Source: Marine Group III euryarchaeote CG-Epi1 | Lineage (GTDB): Archaea > Thermoplasmatota > Poseidoniia > MGIII > CG-Epi1 | Assembly (NCBI GenBank): GCA_001875345.1 | Contig: MIZA01000022.1 | Span: forward strand, 838-64,837 | Direction: 5' to 3' | Length of the DNA stretch: 64,000 nucleotides | In this document: positions 10,601 to 13,156 of the stretch, piece after piece | Layout: every line of letters starts with the position of its first letter | How positions within the stretch are numbered: the stretch's first letter is position 1 | Notes under the pieces: model-generated | The model's database searches: none | Told to the model about the DNA's origin: nothing | The model's input: only the letters and a program-made list of their open reading frames with translations | Program-made: the position numbers and the translations under genes

Positions 10601-11944
10601 GTGGAAGAACCTCCAAAAATAAGGCGCTACGACATCGATTGGCTTAGAGTTATCCTCTTTGCATTACTAATTCCATTTCACGTTGGAATCGGAGTTTACT
10701 GGGAAGCCTATGATTTTGTACAGCCTGAACATGAATTTGAAGGTGAAGCAAATCGAGAAGCTTTGAACAGCGATCTAGGTGAAGATGTAAATAATGTGTA
10801 TTCTTTCACTGGTGATGATTTTATTTCACATATTTTAACATGGATGCATGAGTGGAGGCTTGCTGCACTTTTCATGATTAGTGGAATGGGGACTGCATTT
10901 GCCTTCAAACGTAGAACGTGGAAATTATTTTTAAAAGAACGTTCAAAGCGCTTACTGATACCTATGTTTGTAGGAATTTGGACCATTACTCCTTTGACCT
11001 TGATGATCGCGACAAAATATTTTCCTGGTAGCTTTTTGGAGGGGATATTAGTTTACTTTGGAGGTGGGATTATGCTGACTTTACTCATGATTGTTCCACT
11101 TGTTTCTAGGTTGATTTCTCTTGGGCATCTATGGTTCATATGGAGTTTATTTCAATATTCACTATTTTTACTTCCAATATTTTACGTAGTACGAAATTAT
11201 CCTGAAGGAAAGATTGCGAGATTACTCAAAACTACTTTCAGAATACCGTTCAAACTTGGACCTTTACTAGTTCTTCCTGTAATTCTATCAATATCTGATG
11301 TCATTCTCAAACCAATTATGGGAGAAGCAATTGGATTTGGATATGAATGGTTTTGGTACTTGCTAATTTTCTTTTTTGGTTATCTCTTCATAATTGATAA
11401 AGAACGATATTTTCACTTTATTGACAACTCAAGAATACAAATTACTGTAGCTACCATTATCTCTACTTTGGCATTTATGTGGATTAAAGCTGAGGAAACA
11501 AAAAGTGGAGTTCCTTACATTGGAGGAGGATGGGCCGGAGATGAGTATACGCAATTGGGAATCGAGTACCATACAAATATGACTTTGATTTCATGCTTTA
11601 TAACAAGTTTTCACGCTTGGTTTTGGTGCTTATTTGTATTCACTTGGGGTGCTAAATATCTTAACAGGCCAAGTAAAAATTTAGCCTACCTTAACCAAGG
11701 AGTTTACCCTTTTTATATTGTTCACCAGCCTATCGTCTACGTGGTACTTTTAGTGCTACTAGGAAGCGGATACTCTAATCTCGTGATTTTAATTTTAGGG
11801 ACTGCTGTAGTTACTTTTGGATGTTGGATATTCTTTGAAATTATGAAAAGACATTGGATTACAAGAGCAATGTATGGAATCAAAGAACTTCCGATTAAAA
11901 ATGAAATAATGACTGAATCTACCTCTGCTGTCGAGGAAAAATAA
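10601..11944 (+). CDS. Acyltransferase family 3 membrane protein
   Basis: 447 aa, about 10 TM segments. The N-terminal RYDIDWLRVILFALLIPFHVG is typical of acyltransferase_3/OpgC-like proteins. GTG start. Confidence 0.7.
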   Translation: MEEPPKIRRYDIDWLRVILFALLIPFHVGIGVYWEAYDFVQPEHEFEGEANREALNSDLGEDVNNVYSFTGDDFISHILTWMHEWRLAALFMISGMGTAFAFKRRTWKLFLKERSKRLLIPMFVGIWTITPLTLMIATKYFPGSFLEGILVYFGGGIMLTLLMIVPLVSRLISLGHLWFIWSLFQYSLFLLPIFYVVRNYPEGKIARLLKTTFRIPFKLGPLLVLPVILSISDVILKPIMGEAIGFGYEWFWYLLIFFFGYLFIIDKERYFHFIDNSRIQITVATIISTLAFMWIKAEETKSGVPYIGGGWAGDEYTQLGIEYHTNMTLISCFITSFHAWFWCLFVFTWGAKYLNRPSKNLAYLNQGVYPFYIVHQPIVYVVLLVLLGSGYSNLVILILGTAVVTFGCWIFFEIMKRHWITRAMYGIKELPIKNEIMTESTSAVEEK

Positions 11945-11953
11945 TACTAGTCC

Positions 11954-11960
11954 TTATATA
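11954..11960 (+). promoter_or_regulatory. Candidate archaeal TATA box for the ribosomal-protein operon or leader
   Basis: TTATATA in ccTTATATAggg, about 190 nt upstream of the rpl3 ATG. It is the only strong TATA-like element in the gap. Confidence 0.4.
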
Positions 11961-12135
11961 GGGTCCCTTTGTGCGAGAGACCCTGCAATCACGCAACCAG
12001 ACGCTTAGGGCAATTATCCCTACACCTCTCGAGGCACTCGTTCTCGACGAGAAACGGCGTCACGGTACGATGTGCAACATGTAGGAACTACGCCTGATAT
12101 AGAACGCCGTTAGCAACGGTTAGCGATATCTGGAG
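11961..12135 (+). promoter_or_regulatory. GC-rich structured leader or candidate small RNA upstream of rpl3
   Basis: Locally GC-rich versus its AT-rich surroundings. Hairpins: GGGTC..GACCC, TAGGG-CAATTAT-CCCTA, CTCGT-TCTCG-ACGAG, AACGGCGT..(44 nt)..ACGCCGTT, CCGTT-AGC-AACGG. Several are mutually exclusive. Not coding, apart from a spurious antisense ORF. Confidence 0.45.
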
Positions 12136-12145
12136 AGAGTATAAA

Positions 12146-13156
12146 ATGCCAAAACACAACAAACCAAACCGCGGATCCATGGCTTTCAGTCCTCGCAAGA
12201 GAGCACGCTCTGAAACGCCTCATATCTCTAGTTGGGCTGCTGTAGAAGGAGATGATCCAAAAATTCTTGGTTTTGCAGGATATAAAGTAGGAATGAGCCA
12301 TATCATGGCAGTAGATTACCGCAAAAAATCTACCACTGCAGGACAAGAAATCAGGATGCCTGTAACCATAGTCGAAATTCCTCCAATGAAAGTAATTGGA
12401 GCAAGAGGCTACATTCAGGATACTTATGGATTAAGAACTTTAACTGAAGCTTGGGAAAAGAAAATTGATAAAGATTTAGAAAGAACATTACCTATTCCTA
12501 AAGGTCACAATGCGAAAGCTGCATGGAAGAAAATGTCTGATAGTGATTTGGAAGAAGTTAGACTTTTAGTCCACACACAACCACGAATGGTGACTGGAAT
12601 TCCAAAGAAAAGACCCGAAATTATGGAAATGGCTGTAGGTGGAGGATCTGTTGATGCACAAATCGAATTCGCAAAAGAAATGATGGGTAAAGAATTCACA
12701 ATGTCTGATTTTACACAAGATGGTGAAATGTTGGACGCTATTGCTGTAACAACAGGATATGGTTTCCAAGGACATGTTAAGCGATGGGGTGTGAAATTGT
12801 TGACACATAAAAACTCCAAACATCGTAGAATGATTGGAAATTTAGGTCCTTTCAGTCCAGGGTATGTTGTTTCCACTGTACCGCAAGCAGGTCAGACAGG
12901 ATACCACCAACGTACTGAATACAATAAAAGATTATTAAAAATTGGAGATAATCCAGACGAAATTAATCCGAAAGGCGGATTTTTGAATTATGGTTTAATT
13001 CGTGGAAATTATGCACTTCTACACGGTTCCTTACCTGGACCAAGTAAAAGACTAATTAGATTTAGAAAAGCAGTACGATTCCACGGAAAGAAAACTGATT
13101 CTGTCGTTGTACCTGAAATTACAATGATTTCACAGGAGAGCCAACAAGGAGTATAA
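12146..13156 (+). CDS. rpl3: 50S ribosomal protein uL3
   Basis: 336 aa. GFAGYKVGMSH and GYGFQGHVKRWGV motifs. First gene of the conserved L3-L4-L23-L2-S19-L22-S3 order. Confidence 0.95.
   Translation: MPKHNKPNRGSMAFSPRKRARSETPHISSWAAVEGDDPKILGFAGYKVGMSHIMAVDYRKKSTTAGQEIRMPVTIVEIPPMKVIGARGYIQDTYGLRTLTEAWEKKIDKDLERTLPIPKGHNAKAAWKKMSDSDLEEVRLLVHTQPRMVTGIPKKRPEIMEMAVGGGSVDAQIEFAKEMMGKEFTMSDFTQDGEMLDAIAVTTGYGFQGHVKRWGVKLLTHKNSKHRRMIGNLGPFSPGYVVSTVPQAGQTGYHQRTEYNKRLLKIGDNPDEINPKGGFLNYGLIRGNYALLHGSLPGPSKRLIRFRKAVRFHGKKTDSVVVPEITMISQESQQGV

Follow-up and report, generated by a model that had tools for sequence, protein, structure and literature searches.

A covarying structured RNA in the putative 5′ leader of the rpl3 ribosomal-protein operon of Thermoplasmatota archaea

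In a 64,000-nt stretch of DNA from the Marine Group III (MGIII) euryarchaeote CG-Epi1, referred to here as the window, a 201-nt gap (11945-12145) separates the stop codon of an upstream Acyl_transf_3 gene from the start codon of rpl3 (ATG at 12146). Comparative evidence strongly supports the conclusion that this gap encodes a promoter and, for the large ribosomal-protein operon headed by rpl3, a structured 5′ untranslated leader of ∼165 nt. The original prediction, made from the letters of the window, had named the gap as a candidate autoregulatory leader, or alternatively an unannotated small RNA, containing several mutually exclusive helices. Conservation and covariation now strongly support a structured leader RNA of the rpl3 operon, and they carry it well past the source genome. 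Judged by sequence comparison, the element is real and functionally constrained; its fold is established by covariation, its function is what we infer from these data, and a conserved promoter upstream points to its being part of the 5′ untranslated region (UTR).

The element is found in about 21 of 24 congeneric genomes at 87-96% identity, and BLAST with the gap gave no match beyond the genus. Column identity within the genus is 0.90-0.96 for the gap, 0.82-0.88 for most of rpl3 and 0.6-0.8 for the upstream gene, so that the non-coding gap is the best-conserved stretch of the locus. The regions upstream of rpl3 in other Poseidoniia follow one layout throughout, consisting of a B recognition element (BRE) and TATA box (CCGAnnC..TCATATA), then after about 20 nt a helix, the motif ACCAGACRC, one hairpin with GGGC..CCC and one of variable sequence, the motif GYGUCACGG, a further, GC-rich hairpin, a Shine-Dalgarno (SD) sequence and the AUG. 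The paired motifs CCAGAY and RYGUCAYGG were present upstream of rpl3 in 69 of 71 fetched Poseidoniia regions, representing 29 genera and 5 families. A covariance model built from 68 leaders (R1; 190 positions, 42 pairs) found exactly one match in the window (11963-12148, 69.8 bits, E 9e-16) and a single match per genome in the phylum, and all of its Poseidoniia matches adjoin rpl3. The full element occurs in essentially all Poseidoniia sampled, that is, in Marine Group II (MGII) and MGIII; outside this class the matches are limited to a core made up of helices P2 to P5, and all 16 of the non-Poseidoniia matches that were checked lie 100-250 nt 5′ of rpl3 on the same strand. With a model of this core (R2; 108 positions), one copy per genome was found in 231 of 351 genomes and 84 of 147 genera of Thermoplasmatota. 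The core can be written as ACCAGAC...GGGCAAU...GUCACGGU, and clusters of L3 proteins identify some of its hosts as Ferroplasma (F. acidiphilum falls in the same cluster), Methanomethylophilaceae and Methanomassiliicoccales.

Alignment of the rpl3 upstream regions of relatives revealed compensatory substitutions far above the level of shuffled and slid controls. In the Poseidoniia alignment (74 sequences), 86.6% of cells are paired as against 71.5 ± 0.5 in shuffles, a value reached by none of 500 shuffles, and controls in which the structure was slid gave 33-45% pairing. Double changes were seen in 34 of the 42 pairs, amounting to 439 double-change cells compared with 154 ± 10 after shuffling. 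The phylum-wide alignment of 55 sequences gave a similar picture, with 86.2% paired (69.0 shuffled), 35 of 42 pairs showing double changes, and 354 double-change cells against 129. G-U intermediates are consistent with an RNA from the + strand; a minus-strand RNA was rejected because of its fold z-score of -0.35 and because the series C-G/U-G/U-A would there turn into A-C mismatches. Folding energy alone gave no sign of more-than-chance structure (z = -1.32 for the + strand and -0.35 for the minus strand).

In the supported fold, P1 and P2 lead through an internal loop to P3, beyond which P4 and P5 branch from a three-way junction; a 3′ domain formed by P6 and P7 follows. The minimum-free-energy fold of the predicted transcript (11980-12165), calculated without constraints, equals this consensus. 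All of the features below are on the + strand. The 5′ domain is closed by P1, in which CCUGCA (11982-11987) pairs with UGUAGG (12080-12085); 88-93% of its cells are paired and it shows double changes. Within it, P2 is formed by CGCAACC (11992-11998) with GGU (12064-12066) and UGUG (12071-12074), leaving a bulge at 12067-12070. P2 is an 8-bp helix that shows extensive compensatory change across the phylum, as in GAGAUACC/GGUAUCUC, GGGCAGCC/GGCCGCCC, UUCGACC/GGUCGAA and GUUUAUACC/GGUAUAAAC. The internal loop consists of A11999 on the 5′ side and A12062 and C12063 on the 3′ side. Around it run the two strands that hardly change: ACC-A-GACGCU (11996-12005), which contains the end of P2, the unpaired A11999 and the 5′ strand of P3, and five bases of which (C, C, A, A and C) do not vary among 52 sequences from at least 12 families; and GGCGUC-AC-GGU (12056-12066), which contains the 3′ strand of P3, the unpaired AC at 12062-12063 and the 3′ start of P2, and is invariant or nearly so phylum-wide. 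P3 itself (GACGCU, 12000-12005, with GGCGUC, 12056-12061) covaries across the phylum, with GC:AU at one position of 18-19:34-52 and a first pair that alternates among G-C, U-A and A-U.

The two hairpins of the junction differ in how they are conserved. P4 (12006-12022; UAGGG, 12006-12010, with CCCUA, 12018-12022, and the loop CAAUUAU) has 100% of its cells paired and retains the signature GGGCAAU phylum-wide, and three genus members carry an A-U to U-A double change. P5 (12026-12051) pairs CUC and UCGAGGC with GUCUCGA and GAG around the loop ACUC; a hairpin is present here in every lineage with a different stem sequence (the MGII loop is CAYUCG), and all 8 modelled pairs show double changes. 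In the 3′ domain, P7 (GCCGUU, 12106-12111, with AACGGU, 12115-12120, loop AGC) is supported by a C-G to U-A double change in two genus members; Poseidoniia leaders have a GC-rich hairpin of different sequence at this position, and P7 is unaligned in g13 and G223. Enclosing P7 is P6, an anti-SD helix of CGCCUGAU (12091-12098) with AUCUGGAG (12128-12135), which is part of the minimum-free-energy fold. Its pairs C12093-G12133 and C12094-G12132 are formed in 18 of 18 genus sequences, and the remaining pairs vary only to wobble. The SD sequence, GGAG at 12132-12135, lies 10 nt 5′ of the AUG, and G12132 and G12133 are each predicted to be unpaired with a probability of 0.01. In MGII a P6 is likewise found around P7, with compensatory changes, and the SD lies outside it; most Poseidoniia leaders have GGAG or GGAGG 7-15 nt 5′ of the AUG.

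All of the stems named in the original prediction literally occur in the sequence; evolutionary support was obtained for some of them only. TAGGG/CCCTA is P4 and CCGTT/AACGG is P7, each with the double changes described above, and TCTCG/CGAGA corresponds to P5, the match being only a rough one. A proposed 8-bp long-range stem, AACGGCGT/ACGCCGTT, fails within the genus itself, where its 3′ arm varies freely. The motif GGCGT had been suggested to pair with either of two copies of ACGCC, at 12090 and 12104 (GTTAGC is also repeated, at 12109 and 12119); its partner is instead the upstream GACGCU, in P3. P6, which pairs with the SD region, gives a better account of the conserved ACGCC at 12090, and the two C-G pairs of P6 are kept throughout the genus.

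The promoter assigned to the rpl3 operon contains the TATA box TTATATA (11954-11960, + strand), at the position where a TATA-like box had been noted. It is invariant in 19 genus copies, and all MGII/MGIII leaders have an equivalent TCATATA, with CCGAnnC before it, equally far from the structure, and in all Poseidoniia P1 begins 20-24 nt after the TATA box. No covarying partner was found for the intervening promoter-proximal block (11961-11979, + strand), which extends from the TATA box to the predicted start. This block holds GGGTC/GACCC, another of the proposed stems, which sits in the promoter and has no evolutionary support; a G-to-A change in it is uncompensated. The equivalent MGII block, GGTAAGTCGGRGGG, recurs 5′ of 23S rRNA genes as TCATATA-N-GGTAAGTCGGRGGG-WTGCT, and because of this recurrence the block before P1 is read as promoter DNA common to ribosomal genes. 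Since the spacing between TATA box and P1 is fixed, the nucleotides between them do not covary and the block is shared with 23S rRNA genes, transcription is predicted to start at about 11978-11982, at the 5′ strand of P1. The GGGTC/GACCC stem is probably not transcribed over its whole length.

A longer block, CCGAnnC-N-TCATATA-N4-GGTAAGTCGGRGGG-WTGCT, is common to the rRNA and rpl3-operon promoters of MGII (L174, 4468-4510, minus strand, upstream of 23S in genome G029; L173, 1305-1340, in G074; each set against rpl3 promoters from the same or related genomes). It looks like a “ribosomal” promoter type with conserved sequence from TATA box to start, possibly a factor-binding or initiation element. 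In the complete MGII genome G029 (C1) the 16S (863482-864951) and 23S (1377648-1380506) rRNA genes are unlinked, with a separation of ∼0.5 Mb, and the 16S gene lies ∼16 kb downstream of the start of the rpl3 operon (rpl3 at 847643). At MGIIb loci including L070, L076, L078 and L079, and thus in several MGII genera, a conserved palindrome, CACCCCGUAGGGGUG, stands before the rpl3 promoter, about 30-45 nt 5′ of the TATA box; it could serve to terminate the divergent upstream gene or as a regulator site. RNase P was considered because of the GGAGGUAAGUCGG block and rejected, as the block is promoter DNA shared with the 23S rRNA promoter and the RNase P models give no match.

With respect to its surroundings, the gap is flanked upstream by the Acyl_transf_3 membrane-protein gene (10601-11944) and downstream by rpl3 (uL3; 12146-13156, + strand; Pfam L3, 2.8e-84), the first gene of an operon in the order rpl3-rpl4-rpl23-rpl2-rps19-rpl22-rps3-..., for which Pfam identified L4 (2.1e-40) and then L23, L2, S19, L22 and S3. 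As had been noted, the gap is about 200 nt long and visibly richer in G+C than its surroundings, at 0.53-0.54 compared with 0.32-0.38 in the upstream flank; the first ∼100 nt of rpl3 are likewise GC-rich. This 5′ end of rpl3 (12146-12235, ∼90 nt) has a nucleotide identity of ∼0.95 across the genus, against 0.82-0.88 for the remaining gene. Synonymous sites also seem to be under constraint there, and the 5′ coding region may be part of the leader structure or of initiation control. A small open reading frame of 42 codons (11969-12097) was rejected as an explanation of the gap, since it is disrupted by 1-nt indels within the genus. In several CG-Epi1 metagenome-assembled genomes, contigs terminate at this leader or at the 5′ end of rpl3, either inside it or no more than a few hundred bases away (G002:C24/C27, G004:C57, G007:C89, G011:C25/C28, G018:C34 and G019:C39; loci L004, L017, L019-L021 and L067), and in G011 the leader is found on two contig ends. 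These are probably assembly-graph breaks due to the near-identity of co-occurring strains, and in practical terms conservation among such strains is so high that assembled contigs often break at the leader.

The leader varies in size among lineages. In Ferroplasma (L158 and L159, ∼100 nt before rpl3), it consists of the core alone and is the most compact version observed. The core ends 8 nt before the AUG, the 3′ strand of P2, GGUUGGUGAU, continues into AUAAAAUG, and the SD sequence GGUGAU lies within the closing helix. This compact leader is a good experimental model. The other MGIII family (L094 and L095; G025 and G026), which has a high G+C content, shows enlarged P4 and P5 hairpins, and its core is separated from rpl3 by ∼200 nt of additional GC-rich sequence. 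A GUUAGCG motif with a purine-rich GAGAG/AAGAGAG stretch after it is found, within the 3′ part of the leader, in CG-Epi1 (12117-12139), Methanomethylophilaceae and Methanomassiliicoccales (L155-L157 and L163-L167, ∼40-70 nt 5′ of rpl3), and not in MGII; this combination may be an ancestral 3′ module.

Ribosomal-protein leaders are the established kind of cis-acting RNA in such a position, and for this very operon other archaea already have one candidate. We favour, with slightly better than even confidence, a feedback leader as the most likely reading, in which a protein encoded by the operon would bind the leader and lower translation of rpl3. The invariant internal loop and junction would form the binding site; bacterial S10/L4 leaders suggest uL4 or uL3 as the proteins to consider first. 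When in excess over free rRNA, the protein would bind the leader and repress rpl3, either by stabilizing the fold beside the ribosome binding site or by blocking that site directly, and translationally coupled downstream genes would follow. Consistent with such a role, the element heads the operon, is present once per genome and keeps unpaired nucleotides invariant inside covarying helices. The SD sequence is moreover within P6 in all 18 genus sequences, and in Ferroplasma it is overlapped by the 3′ strand of P2.

Several observations weigh against feedback by a ribosomal protein. No mimicry of 16S or 23S rRNA was detected: BLAST-short returned only 8-12-mers, which do not co-vary between leader and rRNA, and searches of 16S/23S loci with the R1 and R2 models found nothing, small local mimicry still being possible. 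Likeness to the rRNA binding site of the protein is frequent in autoregulatory leaders and is not obligatory. Pairing of the SD sequence in 68 Poseidoniia leaders was 0.33, compared with 0.32 when the upstream sequence was shuffled (p = 0.43), and general SD sequestration across Poseidoniia thus gains no support over shuffled controls. A purely steric block is awkward, because core and AUG are 8 nt apart in Ferroplasma, 60-85 nt apart in MGII and CG-Epi1, and as much as ∼200 nt apart in the other MGIII family. Finally, both the transcription start and the continuity of the leader with the rpl3 mRNA are inferred.

That same variable distance is more easily accommodated if the structure is a removable module. 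The leader would then act in processing or stability: cleavage by an endoribonuclease would remove the structure, free the ribosome binding site and stabilize the mRNA, so that output would follow growth with no ribosomal-protein sensor. Cleaved, long and structured 5′ UTRs of ribosomal-protein operons have a precedent in methanogens (PMC5499594), and pairing of the SD sequence in P6 in CG-Epi1 would fit this account equally. A generic structure that is merely cut away, however, needs neither unpaired nucleotides that are invariant across a phylum nor a fixed three-way junction; in addition, SD occlusion is not general among the leaders, and the stretch from P7 to the SD sequence has no conserved U-rich cleavage motif. 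We regard a processing or stability leader as the likeliest of the rival explanations, though still an unlikely one.

Invariant junction and internal-loop nucleotides amid variable helices are typical of ligand-binding RNAs, and together with the lack of detectable rRNA mimicry they would suit a core that senses something other than a ribosomal protein, as an aptamer for a small molecule or another trans-acting factor setting ribosome production. Metabolite riboswitches, however, usually control several transport or biosynthesis genes, whereas this element is present once per genome and only before rpl3, and no Rfam riboswitch matches it. We consider such a sensor improbable, and slightly more so the fuller proposal that the core is a riboswitch-like aptamer or dedicated trans-factor site through which Thermoplasmatota, among them the abundant marine MGII/MGIII archaea, would adjust the synthesis of more than 20 ribosomal proteins to a growth signal.

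In AT-rich genomes, archaeal non-coding RNA genes classically show up as GC-rich islands, and the closed 5′ domain P1-P5 would make a compact RNA of ∼105 nt. These features, with the variable distance from core to AUG, could indicate an independent or processed stable small RNA, transcribed with the operon or just upstream of it and acting in trans, for example in ribosome biogenesis. The original prediction had offered a separate small RNA as its alternative. Against it, the genus and Poseidoniia alignments show neither a second conserved promoter nor an oligo-U terminator between the structure and rpl3, and no conserved terminator or oligo-U follows P1 or P7. The only promoter signal is the conserved BRE/TATA, whose spacing to P1 on its 3′ side is fixed. 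We therefore hold a separate small RNA to be very unlikely; the Ferroplasma core, moreover, runs straight into the SD sequence and AUG, and the element is never found away from rpl3.

Least credible of all is the mutually exclusive switch resembling the bacterial S10/L4 attenuator, in which GGCGU would pair with either ACGCC and a long-range AACGGCGU/ACGCCGUU stem would compete with CCGUU/AACGG: the complementary segments are present in the window sequence, and a short local hairpin competing with P1/P2 can form in most leaders (three core pairs are ∼90% paired), but neither the 8-bp stem nor the ACGCC at 12104 is conserved, even among members of the genus. The partner of GGCGUC lies in P3, which covaries phylum-wide, the local alternative hairpins (67.5% paired) have no compensatory excess, with 26 double-change cells against 25.6 in shuffles, and the “loop” of the local hairpin covaries with the distal strand of P1, as in CAUAU/GUAUG and CGUAACGA/UCGUUACG. 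The comparative data already largely refute this model.

Covariance-model searches with Rfam 15 identified no known family that explains the element. There was no match in the window at the gathering threshold, nor at E≤10 in 11700-12400, and none at E≤1 in 12 Poseidoniia loci and 16 other Thermoplasmatota loci; known archaeal non-coding RNAs (RNase P, signal recognition particle RNA, C/D and H/ACA small RNAs) and riboswitches are accordingly rejected as identities.

Taken together, these data give good support to a structured leader that opens the largest ribosomal-protein operon, has 34-35 covarying pairs and occurs as a single copy per genome; it offers a new RNA family for databases and genome annotation. 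The phylum that hosts it spans MGII/MGIII, which dominate the archaeal plankton of the surface ocean, the Methanomethylophilaceae, which are methanogens of the gut, and Ferroplasma, whose acidophiles can be cultured, and the leader offers a testable way into how archaea balance the synthesis of ribosomal proteins and rRNA.

The leader of the S10 operon of E. coli is bound by L4. It and the element described here are both structured leaders heading an operon that contains rpl3 and rpl4, for which feedback by a free ribosomal protein would be expected. The two differ in that the element has no likeness to the bacterial leader in sequence or structure, no corresponding Rfam match and no attenuator-terminator hairpin with a U-tract, and archaeal transcription and termination work differently.

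Another comparison is with Methanolobus psychrophilus, in which long, structured 5′ UTRs, with a mean of 154 nt, precede most of the ribosomal-protein operons and cleavage 20-30 nt upstream of the start leads to higher translation and half-life (Qi et al. 2017, PMC5499594). As in that methanogen, a long structured 5′ UTR precedes an archaeal ribosomal-protein operon here, and in CG-Epi1 the ribosome binding site lies within the structure. The methanogen UTRs have not been described as a conserved RNA family with covariation, whereas the element is a defined three-way-junction motif across a phylum.

The closest counterpart is a candidate that also bears on novelty. The original prediction held that regulation of this kind had not been described for this archaeal operon, a statement outdated by the report of four archaeal ribosomal-protein leaders by Eckert & Weinberg (2020; PMC7247131), one of which, an “L4” motif upstream of rplC-rplD-rplW-rplB, is now RF03135 (L4-Archaeoglobi leader). 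That motif, which does not match the element, was rated borderline (“?”) by its authors and often overlaps a methyltransferase gene, and its published alignment is mostly haloarchaeal. The RF03135 model (gathering score 34.5 bits) exceeded its cut-off in none of 351 Thermoplasmatota genomes, while haloarchaeal loci used as positive control scored 57-79 bits; its lone sub-threshold match in the phylum (27 bits, in G367) does not adjoin rpl3 and looks like chance. In the reverse direction, the R2 core model run with filters off on 18 haloarchaeal loci gave no match at the leader positions at E≤1, and a joint MAFFT alignment brought only the 3′ strands into register. Membership of RF03135 was rejected on these reciprocal negatives and on differences in what is conserved. 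In RF03135 the closing stem CUGAN/NUCAG is conserved and the internal loop variable; in the element it is the closing helix P2 that varies (GAGCAGCC, UUCGACC, GUUUAUACC) and the loop ACC-A-GAC / GUC-AC-GGU that is invariant. The element further carries P1 as an additional outer helix and P6/P7 as a 3′ domain, and is cleanly intergenic.

The likenesses are nevertheless considerable. Both RNAs lie upstream of the rplC(rpl3)-rplD(rpl4)-rplW-rplB operon and, compared by eye, both have the same architecture: beyond the closing helix an internal loop leads to a ∼6-bp helix, and this opens into a three-way junction bearing one GGG...CCC hairpin and one that varies. The strings GGG(U)CAAU, GCA..CCC and GCGUCAC are common to the two. 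The element is possibly a distant homologue of RF03135, and descent of both from one ancestral rpl3-operon leader is a tentative proposal to which we give somewhat less than an even chance. The element provides independent support for the common architecture as a real regulatory device, and if the proposal of common ancestry is true, this leader would be the most widely distributed cis-regulatory RNA known in Archaea.

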